A stretch of 64,000 bases of DNA from Hyphomicrobiales bacterium (lineage in GTDB: Bacteria > Eisenbacteria > RBG-16-71-46 > SZUA-252): assembly GCA_050257555.1 (NCBI GenBank), contig JBLMXB010000178.1, forward strand, positions 3,247 to 67,246. Direction: 5' to 3'. Shown here piece after piece: positions 16,431 to 37,718 of this stretch (its first letter is position 1; each line of letters begins with the position of its first letter). The notes beneath the pieces were generated by a model. That model ran no database searches. It saw only the letters and a program-made list of their open reading frames with translations, and was not told the DNA's origin. The position numbers and the translations under genes are program-made.

Positions 16431-17228
16431 GTGCGGGCGTCCACCGAAGCACACTGGTCCCGCTTCTGGCGGGAGCGGTCGGACATCGACGCGGTCTATC
16501 CCACCGACGGACGCGTGGTGGAGCAGATCCGCGCGCAGGGTCCCGTCGCCGGCCGCCGCGTCCTCGAGGTCGGCGCGGGGAGCGGGCGCGACGTGATCGC
16601 CCTCGCCGCGGAGGGCGCCGTCGCGGTGGTCCTCGACTACTCCGCCGCGTCCCTCGAGGTCGCGCGGGGCGTGGCCGCGCGCGAGGGACGGAAGGCGCTC
16701 CTCGTGCGGGCCGACGCGCTCCGCCTCCCGTTCCGCGACGGGACGTTCGACGTCGTGTTCCACCAGGGGCTGCTCGAGCACTTCCGCGACCCGATGCCGC
16801 TCCTCCGCGAGAACGTCCGCGCGCTCGCGGAAGGCGGCACGCTGCTCGTCGACGTGCCGCAGCGGTACCACCTCTACACGCTCCTCAAGCACGCGCTGAT
16901 CTCGATGGGGAAGTGGTTCGCAGGATGGGAGACCGAGTTCTCGATCGGCGAGCTGACCCGGCTCATGGAGCGCGCGGGCGTCCGGATCACCCGCCGGTAC
17001 GGCGCGTGGATGGTGCCCGGGCTCTTCTATCGCGGCCTCCGGGTCGCGCTCCTGAAGCTCCGTCTCGCCCGCCTGCCGCTCTACCCGCCCCCCGTTCCGC
17101 TCCTCTCCCCGGTCCTCGCCGCCTGGCGCCGGCTCTGGGAGGGGACCCCGATCGCGTTCCGCACGTACTTCGTGATCGGGGCGCTCGGGCGGAAGGAGGG
17201 GCCCGCCGGAGGCGGGGGCGCCGGGTGA
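16431..17228 (+). CDS. Class I SAM-dependent methyltransferase
   Basis: VLEVGAGSG, VLDYS, ADALRLPFRDGTFDVV, LLEHF. Confidence 0.9.
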   Translation: MRASTEAHWSRFWRERSDIDAVYPTDGRVVEQIRAQGPVAGRRVLEVGAGSGRDVIALAAEGAVAVVLDYSAASLEVARGVAAREGRKALLVRADALRLPFRDGTFDVVFHQGLLEHFRDPMPLLRENVRALAEGGTLLVDVPQRYHLYTLLKHALISMGKWFAGWETEFSIGELTRLMERAGVRITRRYGAWMVPGLFYRGLRVALLKLRLARLPLYPPPVPLLSPVLAAWRRLWEGTPIAFRTYFVIGALGRKEGPAGGGGAG

Positions 17229-18343
17229 GGATCGTCGCCTTCAACTGGCGGGACCCGCGGCATCCCGAGGCCGGGGGGGCCGAGCTCCAGCTCTTCGAGA
17301 TCCTCCGACGCGCGGTCCGGGACGGCGACGAAGCCCTCTGGCTGGCCGAGCGCTTCCCCGGGGCCCCCGAAACGGACCTGATCGAGGGCATCCGGGTTCA
17401 TCGGGGGGGAACGTGGTACAATGCGCACCTTTCGCTGGGCTCCCTCTATCGCCGCGTGTACCGGAAGGAGCGGTTCGATCTGGTCCTCGACAACATCAAC
17501 AAGGTCCCCTTCTTCACGCCGCTCTACGCCGGGGCGCCGGTGCTGGCGATGGTCCCGCACCTCTTCGGAGGGACGGTCTTCCGGGAGGCCTCGCTGCCGG
17601 TCGGGCTCCTCGTCCGGGCGCACGAGCTGATGATCCCCGCCGTCTACCGCCGCACGCCGTTCCTGACGATCTCCGACAGCACGCGCGACGATCTGGTCCG
17701 CCGCGGCATCGCACGCGAGCGGATCGCGGTCGTCCGCTGCGGCCTCACGCAGGAGGACTACGGCGTCTCGGTCCCGCCGGAGCGGCGGGACGCGCCGCGC
17801 GTCGTCTTCCTCGGGCGGCTCCGGAAGTACAAGGGGGCCCAGCACGCGATCCGGGCTCTGCCGCACGTGCGCGCGACGGTGCCGGACGCGGTGCTCGACG
17901 TCGTGGGCGACGGGCCGTACCGGCCGGAGCTCGAGCGGCTCGCGCGCGCGCTCGGCGTGGCCGACGCGGTCCGCTTCCGGGGCGCCCTGCCGCACGCCGG
18001 GAAGGTCGCCGCGCTGAACGAGGCGCAGGTCGCCGTCTGCCCCTCGCCGAAGGAAGGGTGGGGGCTCACGGTGATCGAGGCGAACGCGTGCGGCGTGCCG
18101 GTCGTCGCGAGCCGGAGCCCCGGGCTGGTCGAGTCCGTCCGGGACGGCGAGACCGGATTCCTCGTGCCGCACGGCGACGCGCGCGCGCTCGCCGACGGCG
18201 TGGTCCGGCTCCTCACCGATCGCGATCTCCGCCTCCGCCAGGCGGCCGCCGCGCGGGCGTGGGCCGCGCGATTCGACTGGGAGACCTGCTACCGCGAGAG
18301 CCGCGCCGTCATGGCGCGGGCGGCGGCGGGACGCGCGGCGTGA
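17225..18343 (+). CDS. Glycosyltransferase family 4
   Basis: WRDPRHPEAGGAE, FLGRLRKYKG, PSPKEGWGLTVIEANACG; GTG overlaps the upstream stop. Confidence 0.92.
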   Translation: MRIVAFNWRDPRHPEAGGAELQLFEILRRAVRDGDEALWLAERFPGAPETDLIEGIRVHRGGTWYNAHLSLGSLYRRVYRKERFDLVLDNINKVPFFTPLYAGAPVLAMVPHLFGGTVFREASLPVGLLVRAHELMIPAVYRRTPFLTISDSTRDDLVRRGIARERIAVVRCGLTQEDYGVSVPPERRDAPRVVFLGRLRKYKGAQHAIRALPHVRATVPDAVLDVVGDGPYRPELERLARALGVADAVRFRGALPHAGKVAALNEAQVAVCPSPKEGWGLTVIEANACGVPVVASRSPGLVESVRDGETGFLVPHGDARALADGVVRLLTDRDLRLRQAAAARAWAARFDWETCYRESRAVMARAAAGRAA

Positions 18344-19431
18344 CCGTCGACGAGAGCCGCGACCTGATCGGCGCGATCGCGGAGGACGCGGGCGCCGGGC
18401 AGGCCGGATCGTTCTTCCGGCGGCACAAGGTCCTCCTGATCGCGCTCAAGATCCTCCTCTCCCTGGCCCTCTTCACGTTCGTCGTGGCCAAGGTCTCGCC
18501 CGGGAACGTCTGGGCGACGGCGCGCCCGGCCGACCCCGCCCTCCTCGGCGCGGCGGCGTCCCTCTTCCTCCTGTCGAGCCTCGTCGGGAGCTGGCTCTGG
18601 GGGACGCTCCTCCGCGCGCAGGGGGTCGCGATCCCGTACCGGAAGGCGGCCTCGTACTACTTCGTCGGGCTCTTCTTCAACAACTTCCTGCCGTCGAACA
18701 TCGGCGGCGACATCGCGCGCATCTCCGACGCGCGGAAGCACGCCGACCGCGTCACGTCGGTCTTCTCCGCGACGCTGATGGACCGGATGATCGGCGTCCT
18801 CGCGATCGGCTTCGTGGCCGTGATCGCCTCGTTCGCCGCGCTCGACCGCTTCCGCCTCTACGCGATCTACACCGCCGTGTTCCTCGTCTTCGCGTTCAGC
18901 GTCGGCGTCTTCCTCGCGATCTTCCACCGCGGCGTGCTCATGGCCGTCGAGTGGCCGTTCCGGGCCGTCGGGGCGCGGGCGGTCGCCGCCTCGATCGGGC
19001 GGCTGATGGACGACCTCCACGGCTTCCGGAGCCACGCGGGCGCGCTCGCGATCGCGTTCCTGGCGTCGACCGTGGTGCAGATCAGCCGGATCTACGTCCA
19101 CTACCTGGTCGGCCTCGCGCTCGGGGTGCGGATCGCCGTCGGCTATTATTTCCTGTTCGTGCCGGTCCTGGCGGCGCTCGTCTCGCTCCCGATCTCGATG
19201 AACGGCCTCGGCGTGCGCGAGGGGGCGGCCGTGGTGCTCTTCCAGATGGCGGGGCTCACCCGCGAGCAGTCGTTCACCATTCCGTTCCTGACGTACCTGG
19301 TGTCGGTCTTCATCAGCCTGCTGGGCGGCCTGATCTTCGTCAGCCGGCCGCCGCGGCGCGCGATCGCGCGGCACTTCGAGCGGCGACGCGCGGCGCGGGC
19401 GGCGGACCCCGGCGGGGAGAGGAGAACGTGA
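18340..19431 (+). CDS. Lysylphosphatidylglycerol synthase TM-domain (UPF0104) flippase-like membrane protein
   Basis: Multiple TM helices; YFVGLFFNNFLPSNIGGD.AR, DR..G, LPISMNGLGVREG. Confidence 0.85.
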   Translation: MTVDESRDLIGAIAEDAGAGQAGSFFRRHKVLLIALKILLSLALFTFVVAKVSPGNVWATARPADPALLGAAASLFLLSSLVGSWLWGTLLRAQGVAIPYRKAASYYFVGLFFNNFLPSNIGGDIARISDARKHADRVTSVFSATLMDRMIGVLAIGFVAVIASFAALDRFRLYAIYTAVFLVFAFSVGVFLAIFHRGVLMAVEWPFRAVGARAVAASIGRLMDDLHGFRSHAGALAIAFLASTVVQISRIYVHYLVGLALGVRIAVGYYFLFVPVLAALVSLPISMNGLGVREGAAVVLFQMAGLTREQSFTIPFLTYLVSVFISLLGGLIFVSRPPRRAIARHFERRRAARAADPGGERRT

Positions 19432-22001
19432 GCTCGAACAAGCGTTGGCACGCGCTCTTCGCGGCGCTGGCCGTCGGCGTCCCCCTGCTGGTCTACATCC
19501 GGACGCTCACCGTGACGGTGCCCTTCTGGGACTCGGGGGAGTTCATCGCGACGTCCTACATCCTCGGCCTGCCGCACCCGCCCGGGAACCCCGTCTACAC
19601 CATGCTCGGACGGATGCTGTGCCTCCTGCCGTTCGAGACGGTGGCGTGGCGCGTGAACTTCATGAGCGCGGCGGCGTCGGCCCTGACGGCGCTCTTCACG
19701 TTCCTCGTGACGGCGCGCGCGCTCCGCCGGACGTTCGAGGGCGGGCCGCGGACCGTCGCGCAGTGGACGGCGTGCGAGCTGGGCGGCCTCGTGGCGGCCT
19801 ACTTCATCGCGTTCGCCTCGTCGTTCTGGGACAGCGCGATCGAGGCGGAGGTCTACTCCCTCTCGTCCTTCCTGATCATCTTCACGATCTGGCTGGCCTT
19901 CAACTGGTGGGACCGGATCGGCAAGGCGGGGAACGACCTCCTCCTGGTCCTGATCGCCTACCTCCTCGCCGTGTCCATCGGCGTCCACCTCGGGACGATC
20001 CTCGTCTTCCCCGGACTGATCGTCCTCCTCGCGATCCTGCGGCCGGCGATCTTCACGAACGCCCGCTTCTGGATCTCGACGATCGTCCTCGGGATCTTCC
20101 TCGGCCTGGTGATCTTCAACGAGGTCAAGGACTGGAACATCCCGAACGGCGTCTTCATGCTGCTCCTCGCGGCCATCGTCCTCTACTACGGCCTGAACCG
20201 CGAGCGGCTCGTGAAGAACAACCTCGCGACCTGGTGGGTGCTGGCGATCGTCGTCGGCTTCTCGGTGCAGTTCTTCCTGCTCGTCCGGAGCCAGCAGATG
20301 CCCGACATCAACGAGGGGATGCCGGCGACGCTCGAGGCGTGGAAGGACTACCTGCTCCGCAAGCAGTACGGCCCGTCGAACCCGTTCGTGCGCCGCGCCG
20401 ACGTCTGGTACCAGATCGAGCACATGTACCTGCGGTACGTCTGGCAGCAGTTCCAGCTCGTCGGCCGGATCGGGCCGTTCGGCGAGGAGTCGCTCCTCGT
20501 CCGGCTCGTGAACCTGATCCCGTACGGCCTCTTCTTCACCGGGGCGTGGTGGAACTGGAAGCGGGACAAGAAGACGTTCTGGTTCTTCTTCAGCCAGCAC
20601 GTGATCATGGGCCCGGCGCTGATCTTCTACCTCAACTTCACCGACCACGAGGTGCGGGAGCGCGACTACTTCTTCACGAACTCCTACCACTTCATCGCGA
20701 TCTGGATGGGGATGGGCGCCGCCGCGGCGCTCCAATGGGTGATGCAGGCGTTCGCGCCCGACCCGCCGCCGCTCAAGGCGCCCCCGGCGCCCGACGCGCC
20801 GCCCCCGCTCCTGCCGCTGCCGACGCAGGGGGCCGCCCGCGCGGGGTTCGGCGTGGGGCTGGTCGCGCTGGTCGGTCTCTCGCTCCTCCCGATGAAGAAC
20901 GGCTGGTACACGCACGACCGCCACAACTTCTGGATCGCGCACGACTACGCGTACAACATGCTCGTGCCGCTCGAGAAGAACGCGATCGTCTTCACGAACG
21001 GCGACAACGACACGTTCCCGCTCTGGTACATCCAGGAGGTCGAGGGGGTCCGGAAGGACGTCCGCGTCGTGAACCTGAGCCTCCTGAACACGCCGTGGTA
21101 CATCCGGCAGCTCCGCGACCAGGCTCCCCGGGTGCCGATCTCGTACACGAACGCCCAGATCGACGCGCTCGAGCCCTACCTCGACGACAAGACGAACAAG
21201 GTCGTCTGGGTGAAGGACATGGCGACGGCCGACATCATGAAGACGAACGCGTGGCGGAAGCCGATCTACCTGGCGGTCACCGTCCCCGAGCAGATGGGCC
21301 TCGAGAAGCAGCTCTCGCTCGAGGGGCTCGTCTTCCGCGTCTACCCGCACCAGGCGCCGCACGGGGTGGACGTGGCCAAGACGATCGACAATCTGTACCA
21401 CGTCTTCAAGTACCGGGGGCTCCTCGACAAGACGCGGTCGTACGACACGTCGGTCTACAAGGACGACAACGCGTACCGGCTGGTCCAGAACTACTCGGCC
21501 GCGCACGTGCAGATCGCGTACCAGCTCCAGCAGCAGGGGCGGCCCGACGAGGCGATCCGCTACCTGCAGGACGCCGTGAAGATCTCGCCCGACTTCCCGG
21601 GGCTCCTCGAGTACCTGGGGCGCATGTACGAGGACGCGGGGCGGGAAGAGGACGCCCGCAAGGTGTACGAGGACGGGATGCGGCGCTTCCCGAACGCGGC
21701 CGAGTTCCACTACCACGTCGGCGTCCTCGACGTGCAGGACGGGAAGGTCGAGGAGGGGATCGCGGAGCTGCGGCGCGCGTGCGCGCTCAACCAGCAGTAC
21801 TTCGACTGGTTCAGCGCGCTCTTCTCGACGCTCTGGCACACCGGGCGGAGGACCGAGGCGGTCGAGGTGCTCCGGACCTGGGTCCGCGCGCATCCCGACG
21901 ACGCGGAGGGGGCGCAGTTCCTCCATGAGTTCGAGGACTCGCTCCGGATCCTCTCCGGCACCGCGCCGGAGGTTCCCGGACGCGCGCGGGGAGGCCGGTA
22001 G
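19428..22001 (+). CDS. DUF2723/TMEM260-like GT-C membrane protein with C-terminal TPRs
   Basis: FWDSGEFIA..Y.LGLPHPPGNP.Y, AIEAEVY, VRERDYFF, FTNGDNDTFPLWYIQEVEGVRKDVRVVNLSLLNTPWY; many TMs; TPR helices. Confidence 0.85.
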   Translation: MSSNKRWHALFAALAVGVPLLVYIRTLTVTVPFWDSGEFIATSYILGLPHPPGNPVYTMLGRMLCLLPFETVAWRVNFMSAAASALTALFTFLVTARALRRTFEGGPRTVAQWTACELGGLVAAYFIAFASSFWDSAIEAEVYSLSSFLIIFTIWLAFNWWDRIGKAGNDLLLVLIAYLLAVSIGVHLGTILVFPGLIVLLAILRPAIFTNARFWISTIVLGIFLGLVIFNEVKDWNIPNGVFMLLLAAIVLYYGLNRERLVKNNLATWWVLAIVVGFSVQFFLLVRSQQMPDINEGMPATLEAWKDYLLRKQYGPSNPFVRRADVWYQIEHMYLRYVWQQFQLVGRIGPFGEESLLVRLVNLIPYGLFFTGAWWNWKRDKKTFWFFFSQHVIMGPALIFYLNFTDHEVRERDYFFTNSYHFIAIWMGMGAAAALQWVMQAFAPDPPPLKAPPAPDAPPPLLPLPTQGAARAGFGVGLVALVGLSLLPMKNGWYTHDRHNFWIAHDYAYNMLVPLEKNAIVFTNGDNDTFPLWYIQEVEGVRKDVRVVNLSLLNTPWYIRQLRDQAPRVPISYTNAQIDALEPYLDDKTNKVVWVKDMATADIMKTNAWRKPIYLAVTVPEQMGLEKQLSLEGLVFRVYPHQAPHGVDVAKTIDNLYHVFKYRGLLDKTRSYDTSVYKDDNAYRLVQNYSAAHVQIAYQLQQQGRPDEAIRYLQDAVKISPDFPGLLEYLGRMYEDAGREEDARKVYEDGMRRFPNAAEFHYHVGVLDVQDGKVEEGIAELRRACALNQQYFDWFSALFSTLWHTGRRTEAVEVLRTWVRAHPDDAEGAQFLHEFEDSLRILSGTAPEVPGRARGGR

Positions 22002-22005
22002 CGCC

Positions 22006-22947
22006 GTGCACGTCCTCGTCACCGGGGCCGCCGGGTTCATCGGGTCGACGCTCTGCGACGGCCTCCTCGCCGACGGCGCCGACGTGACCGGCGTCGACGC
22101 GTTCGTCCCGAACTACCCGGAGTCGTTCAAGCGGGCGAACCTGGCGTCGCTCGAGAAACACCCCCGGTTCCGGTTCCGGACCGACGACCTCCGGACGGCG
22201 CCGCTCGCGCCGCTCCTCGACGGCGTGACGCACGTGGTCCACCTGGCCGCGCTCCCGGGCGTCCGCCTCTCCTGGGGCGAGGCGTTCCGCGACTACGCCG
22301 GGCACAACGTGATCGCGACGCAGCGGCTCCTGGACGCGCTCCGCGACCGTCCGATCGAGCGCGTCGCCGTGGCGTCGAGCAGCTCGATCTACGGCATGCC
22401 GACCCGCTTCCCGACGCCGGAGGACGAGCCGCCGCGGCCGCTCTCGCCGTACGGCGTGACGAAGGTCGCGACCGAGGCGCTCCTCCAGGCGTACCGGGCC
22501 TCGTTCGGGATCCCGGCGGTCGGGCTCCGGTACTTCACGGTCTACGGTCCGCGCCAGCGGCCGGACATGGGGATCCACAAGTTCTTCGAGGCGGCGCGCC
22601 GGGGGACGCCCGTCACCGTCTACGGCGACGGGCTCCAGACCCGCGACTTCACGTTCGTGGCGGACGCCGTGCGCGCGACGCGGACCGCGCTCGAGCGCCG
22701 CACGGAGCCGCTCGTGTACAATGTCGGCGGCGGCCATCGCATCGCGCTGAACGACCTCCTCGACGCGATCGGGCGGATCGCGGACCGCCCGCTCACGCGC
22801 CGGATGGAGCCCGCCCAGGCGGGCGACCCGCGCGACACGTCGGCCGACACGACGCTCGCGCGCCGCGACCTCGCGTACGCTCCGGCGACCGACCTGACCG
22901 AAGGGCTGCGGAGGCAGTGGGAATGGCAACGGAAGCTCGCGACGTGA
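22006..22947 (+). CDS. NAD-dependent nucleotide-sugar epimerase/dehydratase
   Basis: VTGAAGFIGS, HLAA.PGVR, ASSSSIYG, SPYGVTK, LRYFTVYGPRQRPDM (UDP-glucuronate 4-epimerase-like). Confidence 0.92.
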   Translation: MHVLVTGAAGFIGSTLCDGLLADGADVTGVDAFVPNYPESFKRANLASLEKHPRFRFRTDDLRTAPLAPLLDGVTHVVHLAALPGVRLSWGEAFRDYAGHNVIATQRLLDALRDRPIERVAVASSSSIYGMPTRFPTPEDEPPRPLSPYGVTKVATEALLQAYRASFGIPAVGLRYFTVYGPRQRPDMGIHKFFEAARRGTPVTVYGDGLQTRDFTFVADAVRATRTALERRTEPLVYNVGGGHRIALNDLLDAIGRIADRPLTRRMEPAQAGDPRDTSADTTLARRDLAYAPATDLTEGLRRQWEWQRKLAT

Positions 22948-23891
22948 CCGACGGCGCGGCGGGCGGCGCGGTCGACCTGACCGTCCTCGTCCCCGTCTGG
23001 AACGAAGCCGAGAACCTGCCGCCGCTCCTCGAGAAGCTGGAGCGGGACCTGGCCCCGCTCGGCCTCCGCTCCGAGATCCTCGTCGTGGACGACGGATCGA
23101 CCGACGGCACGCCGGACGCGCTCCGCGCGCTCAGGGCGCGGCATCCGAGCCTCCGCGCGATCTCCTTCCGGCGGAACCACGGCAAGTCGGCGGCGCTCTC
23201 CGTCGGCTTCCGCGAGGCGCGCGGCGAGCGGATCGTCACGATGGACGGCGACCTCCAGGACGACTCGGCGGAGATCCGGCCGCTCCTCCTGAAGCTCGAC
23301 GAGGGGTACGACCTCGTCTCGGGCTGGAAGCAGAAGCGGAAGGACCCGCTCTCGAAGACGTTCCCGTCGAAGATCTTCAACGGCGTGACGTCGGCGATGA
23401 CCGGCGTCTCGCTCCACGACATGAACTGCGGGCTCAAGGCGTACCAGGCGGAGGTCGTGCGCACCGTGCGCCTCCGCGGCGAGCTCCACCGGTTCATTCC
23501 CGTGCTCGCGCACTGGAGCGGCTTCCGCGTGGCGGAGATCCCGGTCGTCCACCACCCGCGCCTCCACGGGAAGACGAAGTTCGGCACCGCGCGCTTCGTG
23601 AACGGCTTCCTCGACCTCCTCGCCGTCATGTTCCTGACCACGAGCAGCACGCGCCCGCTCCACCTCTTCGGACGGATGGGGATCGGGGTCGCGTTCCTGG
23701 GCGGCTGCTGCACCCTCTGGGCGGCGTGGCCCTGGTTCCTGGGCGAGGGGCTCCGGCTCAGGCCGGCGCTCGTGCTCGGGCTCGTCCTCGTGATCCTCGG
23801 GATCCAGTTCCTCTCGCTCGGGTTCCTGGGCGAGCTGATCGCGGGGACGCGCGCCGAGGAGCCGGACTATCCGGTCCGGGAGCGGTTCTAG
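22944..23891 (+). CDS. GT2 polyprenyl-phosphate glycosyltransferase (ArnC/GtrB-like, 2 C-terminal TMs)
   Basis: VPVWNE, VDDGSTD, RNHGKSAAL, MDGDLQDD, GELHRFIP, two C-terminal TM helices. Confidence 0.9.
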   Translation: MTDGAAGGAVDLTVLVPVWNEAENLPPLLEKLERDLAPLGLRSEILVVDDGSTDGTPDALRALRARHPSLRAISFRRNHGKSAALSVGFREARGERIVTMDGDLQDDSAEIRPLLLKLDEGYDLVSGWKQKRKDPLSKTFPSKIFNGVTSAMTGVSLHDMNCGLKAYQAEVVRTVRLRGELHRFIPVLAHWSGFRVAEIPVVHHPRLHGKTKFGTARFVNGFLDLLAVMFLTTSSTRPLHLFGRMGIGVAFLGGCCTLWAAWPWFLGEGLRLRPALVLGLVLVILGIQFLSLGFLGELIAGTRAEEPDYPVRERF

Positions 23892-25052: not shown

Positions 25053-26032
25053 GCGCCGGCGCGCGGATGGGTTCCGGCGCGCGGCCCGTCTGGGCGCTCG
25101 TCCTCGCGTACAACGAATACGAGCGGACGCGCGAGTGCCTCACGTCGCTCGCGGCGCTCGACCCCGCGCCCGATCGCGTCCTCCTGGTCGACAACGGCTC
25201 GAGCGACGGCACCCCCGAGCGGGTCCGCGCGGAGTTCCCCGACGTGACGCTCCTCGCGCTCGGCGAGAACCGATGGTTCGCGGGCGGGGTGAACGCGGGA
25301 CTCGAGCAGGCGCTCGCCCAGGGAGCGGGGAGCGTCCTCCTCCTCAACAACGACCTCGTGCTCGAGCGGGGCGCGCTCGGCGCGCTCGCGGCCGCGCTCG
25401 AGGCCGACCCCGCGCGCGGGGCCGTGAGCCCCAAGCTCTACTATTTCGAGCCGCCCGACCGGATCTGGTTCGCGGGCGGCGTCGTGACGCGCGGCTTCGG
25501 GCTGATCCGCCATCGCGGCGTGAACCGGAAGGACGACGCGTACCGCGGCTCCGGCGCCGACGGGCCCCGCGCGGTCGACTACGTCTCGGGCGCGGCGGCG
25601 CTCCTCTCGCGCGCGGCGCTCGAGCGCGTGGGGCTCCTCGATCCCTCGTACGTGATCTACGTCGAGGACGTCGACTGGTCGGCGCGCGCGCGCGACGCGG
25701 GGTTCACGCTCTGGTACGAGCCCGAGGCGCGCGGGTGGCACCACGTGTCGGCGACGAGCGGCGGGGGCCTCACGCCGCTCAAGGCGTACTACCGGCTCCG
25801 GAGCGGCGCCCTCTACCTCTCCCGGCACGCGCGCCCGTGGGAGCGGCCGCTCGCGTGGCTCGCGTACGGGCTCTGGACCGCGTGGCTCATCCTCCGCTCC
25901 GTCGCGCGCGGCCAGTCGCGCGCGGCGGGGGCGCTCCTCCTCGGCTACGCCGACTTCACGCGGATCCTGCTCGGCGCCCCGCCGCCCGCTCGTAGACCCG
26001 AAGCATTCGCTCGGCCAGCCGCTCCTCGCTGA
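25049..26032 (+). CDS. Glycosyltransferase family 2 (rhamnosyltransferase-like)
   Basis: VDNGSSD, N..FAGGVN.G, LLNND, DYVSGAA, YVEDVDWS. Confidence 0.88.
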   Translation: MSAGARMGSGARPVWALVLAYNEYERTRECLTSLAALDPAPDRVLLVDNGSSDGTPERVRAEFPDVTLLALGENRWFAGGVNAGLEQALAQGAGSVLLLNNDLVLERGALGALAAALEADPARGAVSPKLYYFEPPDRIWFAGGVVTRGFGLIRHRGVNRKDDAYRGSGADGPRAVDYVSGAAALLSRAALERVGLLDPSYVIYVEDVDWSARARDAGFTLWYEPEARGWHHVSATSGGGLTPLKAYYRLRSGALYLSRHARPWERPLAWLAYGLWTAWLILRSVARGQSRAAGALLLGYADFTRILLGAPPPARRPEAFARPAAPR

Positions 26033-27101: not shown

Positions 27102-27108
27102 GGCCGGG

Positions 27109-27137: not shown

Positions 27138-27158
27138 CGTCCCGGCGCATCCCGCGCC

Positions 27159-27188: not shown

Positions 27189-27216
27189 CACCGAGTGCGC
27201 GATCGCGGAGGCAACC

Positions 27217-30734: not shown

Positions 30735-31447
30735 ACAAGGTCCTCGTCATCATCCCGACGTACAACGAGCGGGATAACCTGGAGCGGCTCCTCGAGCGGA
30801 TCCACGCGCTCGGCCTCGGGCTCGAGGTGCTGATCGTCGACGACAACTCGCCCGACGGAACGGGCGCCCTGGCCGACCAGATCGCCGCCCACGATCCCGC
30901 CGTGCACGTGATGCACCGGGAGGGGAAGCTCGGGCTCGGCTCGGCGTACGTGGCCGGCTTCCGCTACGCGCTCGACCGCGACTACGACGTCGTCTTCGAG
31001 ATGGACGCCGACTTCTCCCACAGCCCCGAGAGCCTCCCCGACTTCCTGCGGGAGATCGAGGGCGCCGACCTGGTGCTCGGCTCGCGGTACCTCCACGGCG
31101 TCACGGTCGTGAACTGGCCGCTGACCCGCCTGATCCTCTCGTACGCGGCGAACGTCTACAGCCGCGTCATCACCGGGATGCGGGTGAAGGACCTGACGGG
31201 CGGCTTCAAGTGCTTCCGCCGGGCCGTGCTCCAGGCGATCGACTGGAGCCGCGTGAAGTCCGACGGCTACGGGTTCCAGATCGAGATCAACTTCAAGGCG
31301 TGGCGGAAGGGGTTCCGCATCCGGGAGATCCCGATCCTCTTCGTCGACCGGCGGGCGGGCGAGTCGAAGATGTCGCGCCGGATCATCTGGGAAGCGGCCT
31401 GGATGGTCTGGAGGCTCCGCATCCTCGACCTGCTCGGCGCGCTCTAG
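30731..31447 (+). CDS. Polyprenol monophosphomannose synthase (DPM1/Ppm1-like GT2)
   Basis: IIPTYNERDN, VDDNSPDGTG, KLGLGSAY, EMDADFSH, GSRY, DLTGGFKCFR, SDGYGFQIE, R.AGESKM. Confidence 0.9.
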   Translation: MNKVLVIIPTYNERDNLERLLERIHALGLGLEVLIVDDNSPDGTGALADQIAAHDPAVHVMHREGKLGLGSAYVAGFRYALDRDYDVVFEMDADFSHSPESLPDFLREIEGADLVLGSRYLHGVTVVNWPLTRLILSYAANVYSRVITGMRVKDLTGGFKCFRRAVLQAIDWSRVKSDGYGFQIEINFKAWRKGFRIREIPILFVDRRAGESKMSRRIIWEAAWMVWRLRILDLLGAL

Positions 31448-31457: not shown

Positions 31458-33401
31458 GTGGGCCTCTCGCTCGTCGTCGTCCACTACGAGACCATCGAGG
31501 CCCTGACCCGCCTCCTCGCCTCCCTGAGCGCCGCCGCGCCGGCGCCGCTCCGCGAGATCCTCGTCGTGAACAACAGCGGCGAGCCGCTCGACGCCGTCGT
31601 GGCCGGAGCCGGGTGGCCCGTGCGCGTGATCGATCCGGGGCGGAACGTCGGCTACGCCCGCGGCGTGAACTCCGGAATCCGCGAGGCGCGCGAGGAGGAC
31701 GTCCTGATCCTGAACCCGGACGTCCAGGTCCGTCCGGGGGCGATCGAGGCGCTCCTCCGGGCGGCCGCGGCCCATCCGCGCGCCGGGATCCTGGCCCCGC
31801 GGCTCGAACATCCCGACGGCACGCTTCAACTCTCCGCGCGCCGCTTCTACAATGGGAAGACGCTCCTGCTACGGCGGCTGCCGCTCGGGCCGCTCAAGGC
31901 GCGGAGCCGCTCGCTGCGCGCGCACCTGATGGCCGAGTGGGACCACGCCGACACGCGGCCGGTCGACTGGGTGCTCGGCGCGGCGATGCTGGTCCGGCGG
32001 GGCGCGATGCGCGACGTCGGGCTGATGGACGAGCGGTACTTCCTCTATTTCGAAGACGTCGACTGGTGCCAGCGGATGTGGCGCCACGGATACGAGGTGC
32101 TCTACGTTGCCGACGCCCGGATGGTCCATGAGTACGCGCGCGCCAGCGCCGGGCTTCGGCCGCGGTCGGTCCGCGCGCACGCGGCCGGCCTCCTCCGGTT
32201 CACCGAGAAGTGGAGCGCGCTCGTGTACGCGCTGAACCAGTATCGCCGCCGGCTCGTCCAAGGGGCGGCCCTCCTCCTCGACCTCGCGTCGGTGGTCCTC
32301 GCCTGCCTCCTCGCGTACGGCGCGCGGCTCGCCGTCGACCGGTGGTTCGAGAAGCCGCTCTTCCCGCTCGCGGCGTACTCCGGGTTCTTCGCGTTCGCGA
32401 TCGTCGTCTCCCTCGCCGCGCTCGCCGGCAACGGGCTCTACCGCCGGCCCTCGTTCCAGGACGGGATCGAACGCGGCTTCCTGCTCGGCCAGGCGGTGCT
32501 CCAGGCCGAGATCTTCCTGATGGCCTCGACGTTCCTCTTCCAGACGCCGCGCTACTCGCGCGTGCTCGTGCTCCTCTTCGGCCCGTTCCTCTTCGGGCTC
32601 CTCTACGTCGGGCGGAGCCTCCTCGACGGGCTCGCCGCCGGGGCGCGCCGGCAGGGCTTCGCGTTCCGCCGCGTGCTCCTCCTCGGCTCGGGGCCCGAGA
32701 CCGAGCGGGCGCGGCGGCAGCTCGAGGCGGCCCGCGGGGCGGGGTACGAGCCGTTCCACGCCGCGCTCACGCCGGACGGAGGCGAGACGCCCGACCGCGT
32801 GACCGCGCGGCTCCGCGCGCTGATCGAGGCGGAGCGCGTCCAGATCGTCTGCATCGTTCCCGAGCCGGCGGAGCTGCCGGCCCTGCTCGCGACGGCGTGG
32901 GCGCTCCGCGACCTCGGGGTCGCGGTCTACTGGGCGGGGCCGCTCGCGCACCTGGGCCCGCGCGAGGCGGCGAGGCGGCTCGGCCCGCTCGACGCGGTGC
33001 TGCTCCACGCGCCGAGCCGCGGGCTCTCGGTGCGCGCGCGGAAACGCGCGAGCGACCTCCTCCTCTCGCTCCTCGTCGTGCCGTGGCGCTGGCGCGGGCT
33101 CGGCGCGTACTTGAAGACGCGCGAGGAGCCGCTCGGCACGGGCGCCGCCTGGCGGCAGGTCTGGACCGGCGAGCGGAGCTGGGTCGGGCGCACGGCGTAC
33201 GAGCGCGAGCGCTGGGCGGGCGTGCCGACCTGGGCGCGCGCCGCGCTCGAGTCGATCCGACCGGGCGTCGTCTCGCCTGCAGGCGCGGGAGCGGCGGACC
33301 GCGCCGCGCGGATCGAGTCGGAGCTCGCGTACCTCGCGCGGTTCTCCGTGGCGGAGGACCTCCGCCTCTTCCTCCGGGCGACGCGGGGGGCTTCCTCGTG
33401 A
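31458..33401 (+). CDS. GT2 fused to a degenerate WcaJ-like phosphoglycosyl-transferase module
   Basis: N-terminal GT2 (LNPD, VDWVLGAAM, YFEDVDWC), about 4 TMs, RRVLLLG, then KRASDLL...GERSWVG...RPGVV...LAY...S..EDL. Confidence 0.8.
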   Translation: MGLSLVVVHYETIEALTRLLASLSAAAPAPLREILVVNNSGEPLDAVVAGAGWPVRVIDPGRNVGYARGVNSGIREAREEDVLILNPDVQVRPGAIEALLRAAAAHPRAGILAPRLEHPDGTLQLSARRFYNGKTLLLRRLPLGPLKARSRSLRAHLMAEWDHADTRPVDWVLGAAMLVRRGAMRDVGLMDERYFLYFEDVDWCQRMWRHGYEVLYVADARMVHEYARASAGLRPRSVRAHAAGLLRFTEKWSALVYALNQYRRRLVQGAALLLDLASVVLACLLAYGARLAVDRWFEKPLFPLAAYSGFFAFAIVVSLAALAGNGLYRRPSFQDGIERGFLLGQAVLQAEIFLMASTFLFQTPRYSRVLVLLFGPFLFGLLYVGRSLLDGLAAGARRQGFAFRRVLLLGSGPETERARRQLEAARGAGYEPFHAALTPDGGETPDRVTARLRALIEAERVQIVCIVPEPAELPALLATAWALRDLGVAVYWAGPLAHLGPREAARRLGPLDAVLLHAPSRGLSVRARKRASDLLLSLLVVPWRWRGLGAYLKTREEPLGTGAAWRQVWTGERSWVGRTAYERERWAGVPTWARAALESIRPGVVSPAGAGAADRAARIESELAYLARFSVAEDLRLFLRATRGASS

Positions 33402-35626
33402 GCGCCCGCCGCGCCGCGATCGCGCTCGCGGCCGCGCTCGGGCTGACCGCCGCGACCGGCGCGGCGCCCCGCGCCGACGCGGCCGGGACCGCCACGCGCC
33501 TCTTCATCCGGAACCACGTGAACTCGAACGACGTGCGCGGACTCGCCGCGTGGGGCGGGACGCTCGCCGCCGCGACGGGCGGGGGGATCGTGACGGTCGC
33601 GATGCCCGGCGGCCCGGCCGCGAAGGTCCTGAGCGCGCCGGGCGGGCTCCCGTCGAACCAGACGCTCTGCGCGGTCGCGGGCCCGAGCGGCGCCCTCTGG
33701 ATCGGGACCGGCGGCGACGGCCTCGCGCGCCTCAAACCGGACGGATCGTTCCGGCGGACCCTCACGACGTTCGACGGGCTGCCGACCGACCGCGTGCAGG
33801 CGCTCGCGCGCTCGGGCGACAGCGTCTGGGTCGGCACGTCGGGGGGCGTCGCCCTCTTCGCCGAGGACGCCGCGACCGGGCAGGTGTCGCTCCGCCGCTC
33901 CGACTCGAACGCCAGCACGGCGGGCGCCCTGATCTCCGACGACATCCGCGCGATCGCCACGCTCGGCGACACGGTCTGGTGCGCCACCGACCTCGGGCTC
34001 GCGGCGTTCGCCGCGGGCGCGTGGATCGACCGGCGGGACGTCTACGCCGGCGTCGTGAACGGCCTCGCGACGGCGGGCGACACGCTCTGGGTCGGCGCGG
34101 CGGCCGGACCGCGCGCGTACGTGGACGGCTCGCTCGAGCCGCCGGCCGGCGGCTTCGCCGGAACCTGCCTCGCGCTCGGCCGCGCGGGGGGCGCCATCTA
34201 CGCGGCGACGAACGGCGCCGGCGTCTTCCGCTTCGACGGCGCGGCGTGGGTCCTCGCGGGCGGCGCCGCGCCGGGGTTCACCACCTGCCTCGCGGCCGCG
34301 CCCGACGGCGCCCTCTGGGCCGGCACGACCCAGGGGATCGCGCGGCTCGACCCCGCCGCGCAGACGTGGAGCCTCCTCGTCACCGAGGGGCCGGTCGTCG
34401 ACGACTTCCAGCGCGTGGCGGTCGACGGGGCCGGCGCCTGGTTCGCGACCGGGAACACGATCCCGGTCGGCGTCGGCGGCGGGCTCGTGATCCGCTACGA
34501 CGGATCGTCGTGGAGCGCCCTCACGAACGCCGGCACCGGAGGCGCGCTCCAGGCCGCGTCCACGTTCGCCGTCTTCGTCGACCGGGCGCGCGACGTCTGG
34601 CTCGGCCACTGCTGCGGCGGCACGCCGCCCGAGCCGCGCGCGGAGCGGTACGATCCCGCGGCGGGGACCTGGATCGCGCCCGGCGGGACGAACGTCTGGA
34701 GCTTCGCCGAGGCGCCGGACGGCAAGGTCTACGGCGCGAGCGCCGATCCCGGGATCGGCGTCACGATCTACGACGGAACGACGGGGGCCCTGATCGACTC
34801 GCTCACGCCGCAGAACACGCAGGGCGCGGCCCAGGGGGCGGGGCTGACCAGCAACGACCTCCGCGACGTCGCGTTCGATCCGCTCGGCCGCGCCTGGATC
34901 GCGCTCGCTTCGAACGGCCTCGAGCGCTGGGACGGGAAGGGGACCGCCGATCGGTCCGACGACGTCTGGACGCACTTCGCCGGCGGCTTCCCGAGCCTCC
35001 AGACCACGTCGGTCGCGGTGCTCGACGCGTCCACCGCCGTCGTCGGGACGAAATCGGGCGCGGTCGTGCTCACGAACGGGCTCGCCGACGCCGGGCGGAC
35101 CGGCGCGATCAACGCGCTCCTCGGCGGCGCGGCCGTGAACGGCGTCACGGCGGACCCCCGTCGCGTCGTCTGGCTCGCGACCGACGTCGGGCTCGTCCGG
35201 TTCGACGAGACGTCGGCCGCGGCCGAGCGCTTCACGGTCGCCGACGGTCTCGTGGACGACCAGGTGCGCTCGGTCGCGTGGGACGAGGCGCACCGGATCC
35301 TCTGGGCCGCGACCGCGCACGGCGTCTCGGAGATCCATGCCGCTCCGGAGGGCGCGCCCTCCTTCGGGAGCGACGCGTACGTCTATCCGAATCCGGTGGG
35401 TCCGGGGGCGGGACCGCTACGCGTCGGGGGGCTCACCGGCTCCGTGACCGGCGAGATCCGCGATCTGACGGGCCGCCGCGTGCGGAATTTCCACGCCGAT
35501 CCGCTCGACGACGCGATCTGGGACCTGAACGGGCCGGACGGCTCGCCGGCGGCCCCGGGCGTCTACCTCGTCGTGCTCCGGGAGGGAGGGCGCTCGCGCC
35601 TCCTCCGCGTCGCCGTGATCCGATGA
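33398..35626 (+). CDS. PorZ-like secreted beta-propeller protein with C-terminal sorting domain
   Basis: Signal peptide; two-component-propeller repeats (GLPSN, LWIGT.G.GL, GLTSND, GLVDD.V); CTD YVYPNPV...DLTGRRV...WDL...G.P.APGVY.V. Confidence 0.72.
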   Translation: MSARRAAIALAAALGLTAATGAAPRADAAGTATRLFIRNHVNSNDVRGLAAWGGTLAAATGGGIVTVAMPGGPAAKVLSAPGGLPSNQTLCAVAGPSGALWIGTGGDGLARLKPDGSFRRTLTTFDGLPTDRVQALARSGDSVWVGTSGGVALFAEDAATGQVSLRRSDSNASTAGALISDDIRAIATLGDTVWCATDLGLAAFAAGAWIDRRDVYAGVVNGLATAGDTLWVGAAAGPRAYVDGSLEPPAGGFAGTCLALGRAGGAIYAATNGAGVFRFDGAAWVLAGGAAPGFTTCLAAAPDGALWAGTTQGIARLDPAAQTWSLLVTEGPVVDDFQRVAVDGAGAWFATGNTIPVGVGGGLVIRYDGSSWSALTNAGTGGALQAASTFAVFVDRARDVWLGHCCGGTPPEPRAERYDPAAGTWIAPGGTNVWSFAEAPDGKVYGASADPGIGVTIYDGTTGALIDSLTPQNTQGAAQGAGLTSNDLRDVAFDPLGRAWIALASNGLERWDGKGTADRSDDVWTHFAGGFPSLQTTSVAVLDASTAVVGTKSGAVVLTNGLADAGRTGAINALLGGAAVNGVTADPRRVVWLATDVGLVRFDETSAAAERFTVADGLVDDQVRSVAWDEAHRILWAATAHGVSEIHAAPEGAPSFGSDAYVYPNPVGPGAGPLRVGGLTGSVTGEIRDLTGRRVRNFHADPLDDAIWDLNGPDGSPAAPGVYLVVLREGGRSRLLRVAVIR

Positions 35627-36597
35627 AGCTCGAGCCGCCGCTTCGACTCCTCGATCCGCCCGATCCCGCCGCGTGGGACGCGTTCGTCGCGGCCGCCGAC
35701 GGCGCGAGCGTCTTCCACACGTCGGCGTGGGCCTCGCTCTGGACCGACGCGTGGCGCGACGCGCGCTGGCGCGCGATCGTCCTCGAGGAAGGCGGCGTGA
35801 TCCAGGCCGCGCTCGGCGCGATCGAGCGGCGGCGCGGGTTCCTCCGGAGCGTCGACGCGATGCCGTTCGCCACGTACGGCGGGCCGATCGTCCGGCGCGG
35901 GCACCGCGATCCCTCGGGCGCGCGCGCCGCGCTGCTCGACGCGTTCGGCCGGTGGACCGGCGCGCGGCTCGTGCTCCGCTGGCAGCTCGCGTGGTACGAG
36001 GGCGAGGCCGCCGAGCTCCCCGAGCGGATGCCGCGCGCGGAGGAGTTCACGCACGTCCTCCGCCTCGGCCGCTCGTTCGACGAGCTGGCCGACGGTTTCA
36101 GCCCCTCGACCCGGCGCCTGATCCGCCAGGCCGAGGAGAGCGGCCTCTCGATCCGCCCGTTCACGGGCGAGCCGGATCTCCGCGCGTTCTACGATCTCGC
36201 GGTCGAGACGGTCCGCCGGCGCGGCGGCACCCCGAAGCCGTACGCGCTCTACGCGCGGATCCTCGAGCGGCTCGTGCCGGCCGGGCTCGCGCGGTTTCAC
36301 CTCGTCACGCACGGCGACGATCCGGTCGCCGCGAGCCTCCATCTCTTCCACGAGGGCGTCGCGATGAGCTGGCTCCCGGTCTCGCGCTCGGCGTCGTGGT
36401 CGCTCCGCCCGAACAACTTCCTGATCGCGAACGTGCTCGCGAGCCTCTGCGACGCCGGCTACCTCGCGTACAACTTCGGCGCGTCGCCCGCGGACGCGCT
36501 CGGCCTCATCCGGTTCAAGGAGGGCTGGGGCGCGACGCGGCGGCCGGTGGTCGTCGCGGCGGACCGGAGCTCCCTCCACCGGAAGCTCCGGCCGTAG
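35623..36597 (+). CDS. GNAT/FemAB-like acyl- or aminoacyl-transferase
   Basis: WDAFV...SVFHTSAW, MPFATYGG, RRLIRQAE..GL, PNN.L, YNFG.S, GL..FKEGWG. Confidence 0.8.
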   Translation: MKLEPPLRLLDPPDPAAWDAFVAAADGASVFHTSAWASLWTDAWRDARWRAIVLEEGGVIQAALGAIERRRGFLRSVDAMPFATYGGPIVRRGHRDPSGARAALLDAFGRWTGARLVLRWQLAWYEGEAAELPERMPRAEEFTHVLRLGRSFDELADGFSPSTRRLIRQAEESGLSIRPFTGEPDLRAFYDLAVETVRRRGGTPKPYALYARILERLVPAGLARFHLVTHGDDPVAASLHLFHEGVAMSWLPVSRSASWSLRPNNFLIANVLASLCDAGYLAYNFGASPADALGLIRFKEGWGATRRPVVVAADRSSLHRKLRP

Positions 36598-36614
36598 CGG
36601 GGCGGGCGCGGCGC

Positions 36615-37718
36615 GTGCGGATCCTCCTCCTCGGGCACGCGCCCTCGGTCCACGTCCAGCGATGGGCCGACGCGCTCGCCGCGCGCGGCCACGAGATCCG
36701 CCTCCTCACGACGGACGACGCGCCTGGCGCGCGCTGGCCGGGACGCGAGGTCGGGCGGCGCTTCCCGCTCGCGGCGCTGCGGATCGCGAGCGCGCGCGGT
36801 GCGGTCCGTCGCGAGCTCGGCTCCTTCCGCCCCGACGTGACCGTGGCCCACTTCCTCGCCGACTACGGATTCCTCGGCGCGATCGCGGGCGCGCGGCCGC
36901 TGGCCGTCGCGTGCTGGGGCTCCGATCTCCTGATCAACGCGCGGGCGACGCCGCTCCATCGCCTCCGCGCGGGGTTCGTGCTCCGCCGCGCCGGCCTGAT
37001 CCACGTCGACGCCGCCATGCTCGCCGAGGCGGCGATCGCGCTCGGCGCCCCTCCCGCGCGCGTCTGGACGCGGCCGTGGGGCGTCGACGCCGACGGGCTC
37101 GCCCCCGAGCGCCCGTGGGAGGAGCGCCGGCGCGATTCCGGCGTCGCGCGGATCCTCTGGACGCGCCAGCTCCTGCCGCTCTACGACCCGGAGACGCTGC
37201 TCGAGGCGCTCGGGCTCCTCCGCGCGCGCGGCGTTCCGTTCCGCGCGACGATCGCGGGGGACGGCGCGCTCCGGGCGCGCCTCGAGGCCCGCGCGCGCGA
37301 TCTCGGCATGACCGACGCAATCCGCTTCGCCGGATTCGTCTCGGACGAGGCGCTCCGCGCGCTCTACCGGGAGCACGAGATCTACGTCTCGCTCTCCCGC
37401 TCCGACTCCACGTCGCAGTCGCTCCTCGAGGCGATGGCGGCGGGCCTCCTGCCGATCGTGACCGACATCGCGGGGAACCGGGAGTGGGTGACGCACCGCC
37501 GCGAGGGGATCCTCGTGCCGCCGGGCGACGCGGAGGCGGTCGCGGCCGCGGTCGCCGAGGCGGTCTCGCCCGCCGCGAACGGCGCGCCGGCGGACCCGCT
37601 CGCCGACTTCCCGGCGATGGTCCGCGCCGCGCGGGAGGCCGTGGCCCGACGGGCGCGTTTTGCCGATACCGTCGCGCAGATCGAAGCACGCCTCGCGGGG
37701 CTCGCCGGCCGGCGCTGA
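36615..37718 (+). CDS. Glycosyltransferase family 4
   Basis: SVHVQRW, HF..DYG, WGSDLL, PWGVD, SRSDSTSQSLLEAMAAG. Confidence 0.88.
   Translation: MRILLLGHAPSVHVQRWADALAARGHEIRLLTTDDAPGARWPGREVGRRFPLAALRIASARGAVRRELGSFRPDVTVAHFLADYGFLGAIAGARPLAVACWGSDLLINARATPLHRLRAGFVLRRAGLIHVDAAMLAEAAIALGAPPARVWTRPWGVDADGLAPERPWEERRRDSGVARILWTRQLLPLYDPETLLEALGLLRARGVPFRATIAGDGALRARLEARARDLGMTDAIRFAGFVSDEALRALYREHEIYVSLSRSDSTSQSLLEAMAAGLLPIVTDIAGNREWVTHRREGILVPPGDAEAVAAAVAEAVSPAANGAPADPLADFPAMVRAAREAVARRARFADTVAQIEARLAGLAGRR

Follow-up and report, generated by a model that had tools for sequence, protein, structure and literature searches.

A TMEM260-family glycosyltransferase and a PorZ homologue share a conserved gene cluster for probable envelope glycosylation in Candidatus Eisenbacteria

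What does a bacterial relative of human TMEM260, a protein O-mannosyltransferase, act on, and with which partners? The question is raised by a 64,000-nucleotide stretch of DNA (hereafter the window, meaning the whole stretch at its full length) from an uncultured, soil-type Candidatus Eisenbacteria. Between positions 16431 and 37718 the window holds a dense cluster of glycosylation genes around a gene for a TMEM260-like protein (19428–22001). An initial annotation, made from the sequence alone, had proposed that these genes form a periplasmic pathway in which the TMEM260-like protein O-mannosylates exported proteins at D-S/T sequons and other enzymes of the locus extend and decorate the sugar. 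Our analysis confirmed what that annotation had observed and supported part of its interpretation. The cluster probably sugar-coats exported proteins or their surface anchor. In our overall account, to which we give about an even chance, the region is a single conserved envelope-glycosylation supercluster, with a protein as the favoured acceptor and a link to the anchoring of type IX secretion system (T9SS) cargo.

The 857-amino-acid product of 19428–22001 matched PF11028 (formerly DUF2723) at 156.8 bits, against a gathering cut-off of 24.2, over residues 35–203, and Pfam placed TPRs at residues 691–761, which bears out the DUF2723-plus-TPR architecture that the initial annotation had recognised. 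Nominating DUF2723 as an initiating enzyme was not new at the level of the family, since Pfam already names PF11028 'Protein O-mannosyl-transferase TMEM260-like'. Searching PDB sequences with phmmer, we recovered human TMEM260 (9rql_A, E 2.7e-16) in two stretches of low identity, one covering the membrane core (query residues 12–158) and one, ungapped, covering the luminal domain (query 496–569 against chain 411–484). It had been set beforehand as a test that the Asp of the WDSGEF motif should align with the catalytic Asp of TMEM260, and in this alignment D35, the Asp in question, stands opposite D52, while H50 and D526 stand opposite H67 and D441. In 28 of 28 orthologues, 37–82% identical to the window protein, none of the three residues varies, and D526 lies within a T-N-G-D-N-D-T-F-P-L-W block that is invariant when these 28 are aligned; the positions of the human donor-loop residues R264, Y267 and R355 fall outside both aligned stretches. 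In the accessible parts of two reports, the human D52A mutant is inactive (PMC10214176), H67 is essential and belongs to the donor site, D441 is the essential catalytic base of a luminal Rossmann-like domain (bioRxiv 10.64898/2026.03.17.711096), and mutating D52, H67 and D441 abolishes TMEM260 activity (PMC10214176; bioRxiv 10.64898/2026.03.17.711096). Judged by its sequence, the window protein is a genuine member of the TMEM260 family.

The predicted structure has the matching layout. An AlphaFold2 model (predicted local distance difference test, pLDDT, 86.3; predicted template-modelling score, pTM, 0.83) placed membrane helices first, then a mixed alpha/beta domain at residues ~500–660 and TPR helices at 680–843, the same order as in TMEM260, where the Rossmann-like and TPR parts hold an extended peptide according to the available portion of bioRxiv 10.64898/2026.03.17.711096. 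Human TMEM260, which O-mannosylates IPT domains in the endoplasmic reticulum (structures 9rql, 9rqm and 9rqn), is the closest characterised protein. The two share the N-terminal GT-C glycosyltransferase part, homology in the luminal domain, the equivalents of D52, H67 and D441 and the order of domains, but the Eisenbacteria protein is bacterial and periplasmic and has a longer central membrane part and more TPR helices, and the alignment is partial. It also has an ArnC/GtrB-type synthase and an epimerase encoded alongside, and these neighbours leave room for a sugar other than mannose. Immediately behind the last TPR helix (residues 837–839, window 21936–21944) seven of seven close orthologues carry Y-E-D-S-L, and D-S-[L/A/I] occurs at the same place in at least 5 of 21 more distant aligned orthologues.

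Distant homologues of TMEM260 exist in bacteria according to the accessible part of PMC10214176. Our literature searches returned one paper on DUF2723 and, for TMEM260 combined with bacteria, no study of a bacterial homologue by title or abstract among the papers listed. The family is widespread in the phylum: PF11028 was present, usually in several copies, in 100 of 101 sampled genomes (99 of 100 without one unpublished genome, G015), and the source genome encodes five copies, four besides 19428–22001. A PF11028 paralogue of 569 amino acids without TPRs lies on contig C135 (L111; 6436–8145, minus strand), between two PilX_N genes and an FG-GAP protein on one side and PilO and a PilQ-type secretin on the other, and is a candidate pilus-linked glycosyltransferase.

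The initial annotation had correctly noted a GNAT gene, but it had overlooked both the FemAB/VimA-like identity of that gene, which lies towards the 3' end of the cluster, and what precedes it. The 742-amino-acid product of 33398–35626, which carries Reg_prop repeats (Pfam), was modelled by AlphaFold2 (pLDDT 89.9) as two beta-propellers followed by a T9SS C-terminal domain. Its top Foldseek match in the PDB was Porphyromonas gingivalis PorZ (5m11; E 2.4e-28, TM-scores 0.64/0.64 over 809 columns), and the next matches, Bacteroides sensor domains, reached TM-scores of 0.33–0.35. By its modelled fold the protein is a PorZ homologue, and as such a predicted part of the T9SS attachment complex. PorZ was found by the fold search only; a PDB sequence search with the propeller protein returned Bacteroides hybrid two-component sensor domains instead. 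The genome encodes a PorU sortase (481.1 bits, cut-off 420) and 45 open reading frames (ORFs) with a T9SS tail (TIGR04183), and 22 ORFs match the NCBIfam PorZ model NF052228, mostly through the tail domain. The window itself contains a 926-amino-acid secreted protein with a T9SS C-terminal sorting domain (8642–11422, plus strand; TIGR04183, FlgD_ig), just upstream of the rib operon, with 7 D-S-hydrophobic sites against 2.0 expected.

The FemAB-like gene follows directly at 35623–36597, and its product matched NCBIfam TIGR03019 (pepcterm_femAB) with E 2.1e-20, at 73.1 bits against a cut-off of 260.35. The same family is matched by P. gingivalis VimA, the enzyme that puts the amino acid on the sugar linking the cargo, in the portion of PMC7468200 available, and P. 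gingivalis PorZ binds anionic lipopolysaccharide (A-LPS) and delivers it to PorU for cargo attachment in that of PMC8545088. With a PorZ homologue and a FemAB/VimA-like protein among its products, the 3' part of the cluster resembles a set of type IX anchoring functions. The likeness to the P. gingivalis attachment pathway (PorZ, PorU, A-LPS, Wbp/Vim) extends to a PorZ-fold protein, PorU, cargo with T9SS tails and a FemAB-like enzyme followed by a GT4 glycosyltransferase. Unlike that pathway, the PorZ gene is here embedded in a glycosyltransferase cluster, and Pfam detected no VimE-like deacetylase or Wbp genes in the cluster.

To place these two proteins in their setting we called the genes of the whole cluster. 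Long ORFs are open in all frames because the GC content of the window is ~73%, and genes were called from GC at third codon positions and from the order of GC across the three codon positions; gene starts are approximate throughout. The segment 16431–37718 is filled by 16 closely spaced genes, of which 15 are read on the plus strand and only 25956–27191 on the minus strand, and our count of 17 adds the conserved metallophosphoesterase gene just upstream, whose membership in the cluster is uncertain. On the 5' side lie ribD, ribE, ribBA, ribH and nusB, and on the 3' side the dcw cluster begins with mraZ, rsmH and ftsI. The 17 genes are as follows (E values from Pfam unless another source is named; GT4 and GT2 are glycosyltransferase families).

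15698–16423, plus strand: calcineurin-like metallophosphoesterase (Metallophos, E 7.5e-16), syntenic in many related loci
16431–17228, plus strand: class I S-adenosylmethionine-dependent methyltransferase, predicted cytoplasmic (Methyltransf_11, E 3.1e-19)
17225–18343, plus strand: GT4 glycosyltransferase (GT4a), predicted cytoplasmic, no hydrophobic segment (Glycos_transf_1, E 1.9e-41)
18340–19431, plus strand: UPF0104/LPG_synthase_TM flippase-like membrane protein, seven hydrophobic segments (PF03706, E 1.1e-37)
19428–22001, plus strand: TMEM260-family GT-C glycosyltransferase with Rossmann-like and TPR domains (PF11028, E 6.3e-46)
21925–22947, plus strand: NAD-dependent sugar epimerase/dehydratase of the short-chain dehydrogenase/reductase type (Epimerase, E 4.4e-54); the true start may be further downstream
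22944–23891, plus strand: GtrB/ArnC-type GT2, 315 amino acids, candidate undecaprenyl-phosphate-sugar synthase (Glycos_transf_2, E 4.8e-27)
23919–25052, plus strand: GT4 glycosyltransferase (GT4b; Glyco_trans_1_4, E 5.4e-24)
25049–26032, plus strand: rhamnosyltransferase-like GT2 (GT2b; Glycos_transf_2, E 5.5e-20; TIGR01556, 2.1e-18, below cut-off)
25956–27191, minus strand: GT4 glycosyltransferase (GT4c), the sole minus-strand gene, called from codon-position GC (Glyco_trans_1_4, E 4.7e-26)
27217–28365, plus strand: GT4-like, TuaH-like protein (GT4d; Glyco_trans_1_4, E 5.1e-11; NCBIfam TuaH, 3.1e-19, below cut-off)
28362–30734, plus strand: YfhO-like polytopic GT-C membrane protein, 790 amino acids, 12 hydrophobic segments (YfhO, 36.3 bits, cut-off 28.5)
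30731–31447, plus strand: short soluble GT2, 238 amino acids, DPM1/AglD-like, candidate polyprenyl-phosphate-hexose synthase (Glycos_transf_2, E 2.3e-32)
31458–33401, plus strand: GT2 (E 4.6e-15) fused to a WbaP-type non-catalytic N-terminal membrane and CoA_binding_3-like half (CoA_binding_3 at residues 325–445)
33398–35626, plus strand: PorZ homologue, two beta-propellers and T9SS C-terminal domain (AlphaFold2 and Foldseek)
35623–36597, plus strand: FemAB-family/GNAT transferase, VimA-like (Acetyltransf_6, E 6.7e-18)
36615–37718, plus strand: GT4 glycosyltransferase (GT4e), the last gene before mraZ (Glycos_transf_1, E 7.5e-28)

Everything that the initial annotation had listed was recovered by Pfam where it had been placed: two GT-C-type membrane proteins, two synthase-like GT2s, a UPF0104 protein, seven other glycosyltransferases, an epimerase, a methyltransferase and a GNAT protein. 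It had also recognised no Wzx, Wzy, Wzz, Wza, Wzc or ABC exporter, and Pfam found none of these families among the 17 proteins, nor a GtrA-type small flippase (GtrA/ArnEF/GtcA). A phosphoglycosyltransferase and a ligase were likewise absent from the cluster by Pfam; such genes, as well as wzx and wzy, are located elsewhere in the genome.

The two synthase candidates belong to different kinds. The longer one (22944–23891) has a C-terminal membrane anchor (hydrophobic segment at residues 265–302) and matched the NCBIfam models ArnC (1.6e-46) and PgfS (2.3e-39). The short one (30731–31447), coupled to the YfhO-like gene, matched dolichyl-phosphate hexose transferase (1.4e-20) and AglJ (6.3e-20), with the PpgS model also among the closest. 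Both GT2s stay below the curated cut-offs in these matches, which speak for a type of enzyme and not for orthology. The epimerase before the longer synthase is GalE-like, GalE being its best NCBIfam match (2.6e-41, below cut-off). With a synthase closest to ArnC/PgfS beside a GalE-like epimerase, the genes do not point to mannose, and the mannose of the initial annotation is unproven as a donor sugar. The UPF0104 protein matched the 'flippase-like domain' model TIGR00374 at 61.5 bits, above the cut-off of 43.2. For the YfhO-like protein the Pfam alignment is limited to residues 711–761, about the C-terminal 50 residues; a PDB sequence search found nothing at E values up to 1, and the Atlas clusters nearest to the protein carry YfhO in 26–81% of their members (Atlas feature search 0.99). 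The GT2 fusion (31458–33401) matched NCBIfam EPS_sugtrans at model positions 1–270 of 445 only; it joins an N-terminal GT2 domain to half of a WbaP/WcaJ-type phosphoglycosyltransferase without the catalytic Bac_transf domain, an unusual arrangement that adjoins the PorZ-like gene in many genomes.

A synthase, a flippase and a GT-C transferase make up several three-component systems: GtrA/GtrB/Gtr in O-antigen glucosylation, ArnC/ArnEF/ArnT, CsbB/GtcA/YfhO and PgfS/PgfE/PgfM1/PgfM2 of Streptococcus mutans. Together with the P. gingivalis attachment pathway these are the nearest known systems. Here too one cluster encodes an anchored GT2 synthase, a candidate membrane flippase and a GT-C transferase, and as in the Pgf system an epimerase lies alongside, with family matches to ArnC, PgfS and PgfM1/2 that are all below cut-off. 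The cluster differs in that a UPF0104 protein stands in place of a GtrA-family flippase, and in only 41 of 66 loci, and in that its GT-C enzyme is of the TMEM260 type with TPRs.

Is this arrangement conserved, or peculiar to one genome? A search of the genome collection located 521 places with a relative of the TMEM260-like protein; among the best 80 of these the closest is 82% identical. Because the best 80 of 521 are nearly all labelled Candidatus Eisenbacteria, we take the organism to be an Eisenbacteria bacterium, in the Fibrobacteres–Chlorobi–Bacteroidetes (FCB) group and not in the Bacteroidota. Contig labels of Bacteroidota, Verrucomicrobiia and Binatia were rejected as signs of spread to other phyla, those loci sharing the full Eisenbacteria synteny. 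We counted neighbours by tblastn of the window proteins against these 80 related loci, taking as denominators the loci with enough flank. Upstream of the TMEM260-like gene, GT4a was present in 61 of 63 loci, the methyltransferase in 56 of 60 and the UPF0104 gene in only 41 of 66; downstream, the epimerase was present in 66 of 75, the ArnC/GtrB-type GT2 in 60 of 64 and, within 10 kb, a short GT2 of the 30731 type in 46 of 48. Where identity is 60% or more, loci retain the gene order of the window in full. At ~40% identity the UPF0104 gene, GT4b–d and the YfhO-like gene are missing and the order runs TMEM260-like gene, epimerase, GT2, second epimerase, short GT2, GT2 fusion, propeller. In the window, stop and start codons overlap at 17225/17228, 18340/18343, 19428/19431, 22944/22947, 28362/28365, 30731/30734, 33398/33401 and 35623/35626, and the TMEM260-like gene is translationally coupled to the UPF0104 gene and followed by the epimerase and the ArnC/GtrB-type synthase. 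This order persists across the phylum, and the arrangement of synthase, flippase-like protein and GT-C enzyme is conserved.

The PorZ-like gene keeps similar company. A propeller relative was found in 54 of 61 genomes of the phylum (53 of 60 without the unpublished genome), with one match in 42 of them and, in the other 12, two or three matches that are mostly partial. In 30 loci its 5' neighbours were the GT2 fusion or the pair of YfhO-like gene and short GT2, and its 3' neighbours a FemAB-like gene, a GT4 gene or both, even at 25–30% identity; the same glycosylation genes flank it across loci at 25–70% identity. A FemAB-like gene lies directly downstream in 15 of 29 related loci (L082–L110), and GT4e lies downstream in many. 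Among the matches listed, the best PF11028 match and the PorZ-like gene were on one contig, 8–35 kb apart, in at least 36 of 54 genomes; in the remaining genomes, at most 18 of 54, they were on different contigs or the PF11028 match was outside those listed. A PorZ homologue beside a TMEM260-like gene throughout the phylum suggests a previously undescribed genetic coupling of periplasmic glycosylation and type IX anchoring.

An alternative is that separate functional modules have come together only because the chromosomal slot between rib-nusB and dcw tolerates insertions. The content of the modules does vary by clade, with the UPF0104, YfhO-like and GT4b–d genes absent at ~40% identity, and one gene runs on the opposite strand. 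However, the TMEM260-like and PorZ-like genes stay 8–35 kb apart on one strand in at least those 36 of 54 genomes, at identities down to 25–35%, and several junctions have overlapping stop and start codons. We give this explanation a slim chance.

From these data we infer that the cluster serves lipid-phosphate-sugar-dependent periplasmic glycosylation with a TMEM260-type transferase, genetically coupled to type IX anchoring. The ArnC/GtrB-type GT2 (22944) would load a sugar onto undecaprenyl phosphate, the epimerase (21925) would adjust that sugar, with the UPF0104 protein (18340) as candidate flippase. Transfer of the sugar in the periplasm would then fall to the TMEM260-family enzyme (19428), most probably onto Ser/Thr of extended polypeptides fresh from export, which its Rossmann-like and TPR domains may hold as they do in human TMEM260. 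In the 3' half, the YfhO-like GT-C protein paired with the DPM1-like synthase may form a second module, and the PorZ homologue, the FemAB/VimA-like transferase and the GT4 would, by analogy with Porphyromonas, supply and present a cargo-anchoring glycolipid. Hydropathy gave no signal peptide and no membrane-spanning periplasmic domain for the seven GT4/GT2 proteins. Because they belong to cytoplasmic, nucleotide-sugar-using GT-A/GT-B families, they cannot extend a protein-bound sugar in the periplasm, and they would act in the cytoplasm on a lipid-linked glycan. Of the periplasmic pathway of the initial annotation, the arrangement of synthase, flippase-like protein and GT-C enzyme is supported as conserved; its main flaw is the extension of protein-bound sugar by the glycosyltransferases of the locus. 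As a clonable set of synthase, epimerase, flippase-like protein and transferase with three mutable residues, the cluster offers a way into the questions of what bacterial TMEM260 proteins act on and which enzyme links O-glycans to protein in the Bacteroidota and related bacteria.

Three points favour a protein acceptor: the enzyme has kept its catalytic base on the luminal side along with the Rossmann-like and TPR domains, the C135 paralogue sits among type IV pilus genes, and D-S-hydrophobic motifs abound in exported proteins of the source genome. The main rival holds instead that the whole cluster makes and decorates a surface glycolipid or polysaccharide like A-LPS, that both GT-C enzymes add periplasmic side-branch sugars to this anchor glycan with no protein substrate, and that PorZ presents the glycan to PorU, as the accessible text of PMC8545088 describes for P. 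gingivalis. In its favour, the cluster combines a PorZ homologue with a methyltransferase, a FemAB-like enzyme and seven glycosyltransferases of the cytoplasm; the closeness of the synthase to ArnC also fits, and YfhO-type enzymes are known for teichoic-acid glycosylation. It accounts less well for the retention of the D526 base and of Rossmann-like and TPR parts that grip an extended peptide in human TMEM260, and the phosphoglycosyltransferase, Wzx, Wzy and ligase are encoded outside the cluster. We regard this rival as a serious contender that is nonetheless unlikely.

Several further points weigh against the account with a protein acceptor and type IX coupling. Foldseek against the PDB (entries to 2026-04-08) did not return a TMEM260 chain for the model of 19428–22001; its best GT-C matches were oligosaccharyltransferase-type PglB, STT3 and AglB at TM-scores of 0.33–0.42, along with TPR proteins. 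The PorZ model NF052228 matched 33398–35626 at 48.2 bits against a cut-off of 260 and only over its C-terminal 225 positions, and the ArnC, PgfS, PorZ and FemAB matches of NCBIfam were all under the curated cut-offs. In 25 of 66 loci there is no UPF0104 gene. ArnC, the best family match of the synthase, is an enzyme of the lipid A pathway, the substrates of GT-C enzymes in comparable clusters (ArnT, Gtr, YfhO) are often lipids or polysaccharides, and TPR domains in the periplasm are also known from polysaccharide export. Our literature searches found no paper that assigns a substrate to a bacterial TMEM260-family member. The assembly is a metagenome bin with an estimated contamination of 6.75%. 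To these is added the behaviour of the sequons in other genomes of the phylum, as follows.

For the source genome we used crude gene calls (1831 ORFs of at least 100 amino acids), a hydropathy rule for signal-peptide-like proteins and within-protein shuffles as the expectation. The motif DS[AILVMT] occurred 402 times in 355 signal-peptide-like proteins against 242.5 expected (observed/expected ratio, O/E, 1.66; z 9.6), compared with an O/E of 0.78 in 950 cytoplasmic proteins. The excess was spread, with 45% of exported proteins above expectation versus 24% of cytoplasmic ones, and DSL (2.43) and DST (2.25) were the most enriched D-S motifs in exported proteins. DT[AILVMT] showed no enrichment (O/E 0.87 in exported and in cytoplasmic proteins), D[ST] followed by disallowed third residues gave 0.60 and 0.58, respectively, and reversed and Glu-substituted motifs were near 1 in exported proteins and at 1.07 and 1.16 in cytoplasmic ones. 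An E. coli control of low power (250 kb, 35 signal-peptide-like proteins) had 13 observed against 12.9 expected (O/E 1.00). The D-S enrichment in the source genome is real. Its highest excess in any exported protein falls within the window, at 3798–6785 on the plus strand: a 995-amino-acid, SurA-like periplasmic peptidyl-prolyl isomerase with 13 dispersed D-S-[AILVMT] sites against 1.4 expected and no D-T site.

Across genomes, where one generic gene caller was used for all, the enrichment did not follow PF11028. The initial annotation had expected the two to go together. A sub-sample of the source genome (G000), with PF11028, gave O/E 1.48 in exported and 0.70 in cytoplasmic proteins, and G052, without PF11028, gave 0.95 (40 observed against 42.0 expected) and 1.15. 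In three other carriers the enrichment was absent or reversed: the ratios were 0.96 exported and 0.68 cytoplasmic in G021, which has strong PF11028 matches, 1.09 and 0.85 in G054, which has only a weak PF11028 paralogue, and 0.37 and 0.59 in G041, which has PF11028 and a PorZ-like gene. In G041 the signal-peptide-like proteins of contig C1:1-400000 (L240–L259) were depleted in the motif, with 19 observed against 51.3 expected (z -4.6). We therefore rejected the contrast between presence and absence of PF11028 as support, as G052 fits it and G021, G054 and G041 do not. A pooled count over related loci was also set aside as uninformative, the same orthologues being counted many times. Because the enrichment does not track PF11028, it cannot tie the enzyme to the sequon, and the proposed co-occurrence is weakened by three carriers without enrichment, one of them depleted. 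Alternative transferases exist in the source genome, which encodes ~9 PMT_2 and 3 Wzy_C proteins besides the four further PF11028 paralogues; we found no STT3 candidates in it.

These data bear most directly on the proposal from which we started, namely that the TMEM260-like enzyme starts general O-mannosylation at D-S/T sequons of the Bacteroidota type and that transferases of the locus extend and decorate the protein-bound mannose. In its favour are the family and residue match to TMEM260, the D-S-hydrophobic enrichment in exported proteins of the source genome together with the lack of enrichment at disallowed third residues, the lack of enrichment in G052, and a Bacteroides thetaiotaomicron control genome that has PF11028 and no PMT_2. 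The O-oligosaccharyltransferase of Bacteroidota was still unknown in 2022 in the portion of PMC8729774 available, and our own literature searches found no paper naming the enzyme. However, the putative extending enzymes are GT4/GT2 proteins of the cytoplasm, D-T motifs show no excess, G021, G041 and G054 lack the enrichment despite PF11028, the other candidate transferases are numerous, and neither the synthase nor the epimerase next to the enzyme suggests mannose. We consider this proposal improbable. The source organism does share with Bacteroidota O-glycosylation (D-S/T-A/I/L/V/M/T) its place in the FCB group and the over-representation of D-S-hydrophobic motifs in exported proteins, but it has no Wzx-containing lfg-type locus here, and four further genomes of the phylum did not show the enrichment.

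In a more far-reaching reading, the TMEM260-like enzyme would be the sought-after transferase of general protein O-glycosylation of the FCB type, acting on D-S-hydrophobic sites of unfolded exported proteins, and may move, instead of one sugar, a short, methylated oligosaccharide linked to undecaprenyl monophosphate, with the system genetically coupled to type IX anchoring. Assembly of this glycan would involve the ArnC/AglJ-like GT2, the methyltransferase and the GT4s, the UPF0104 protein would flip it, and the YfhO-like protein would add the last sugar outside. Such a pathway would parallel, in bacteria and with an O-linkage, the haloarchaeal AglJ/AglP/AglB pathway. To this reading, too, we assign a low probability, and we retain the more general account of envelope glycosylation linked to type IX anchoring.

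Two observations concern the dcw genes downstream of the cluster. An ORF with a weak STAS_2 match (38269–39033, plus strand) overlaps mraZ (38069–38578) in a different frame and is doubtful at least over the overlap, codon-position GC backing mraZ for the first part. Further on, an FtsI-type penicillin-binding protein of the dcw cluster (40493–42583, plus strand) carries two C-terminal PASTA domains, which on such proteins are more usual in Gram-positive bacteria than in diderm lineages.

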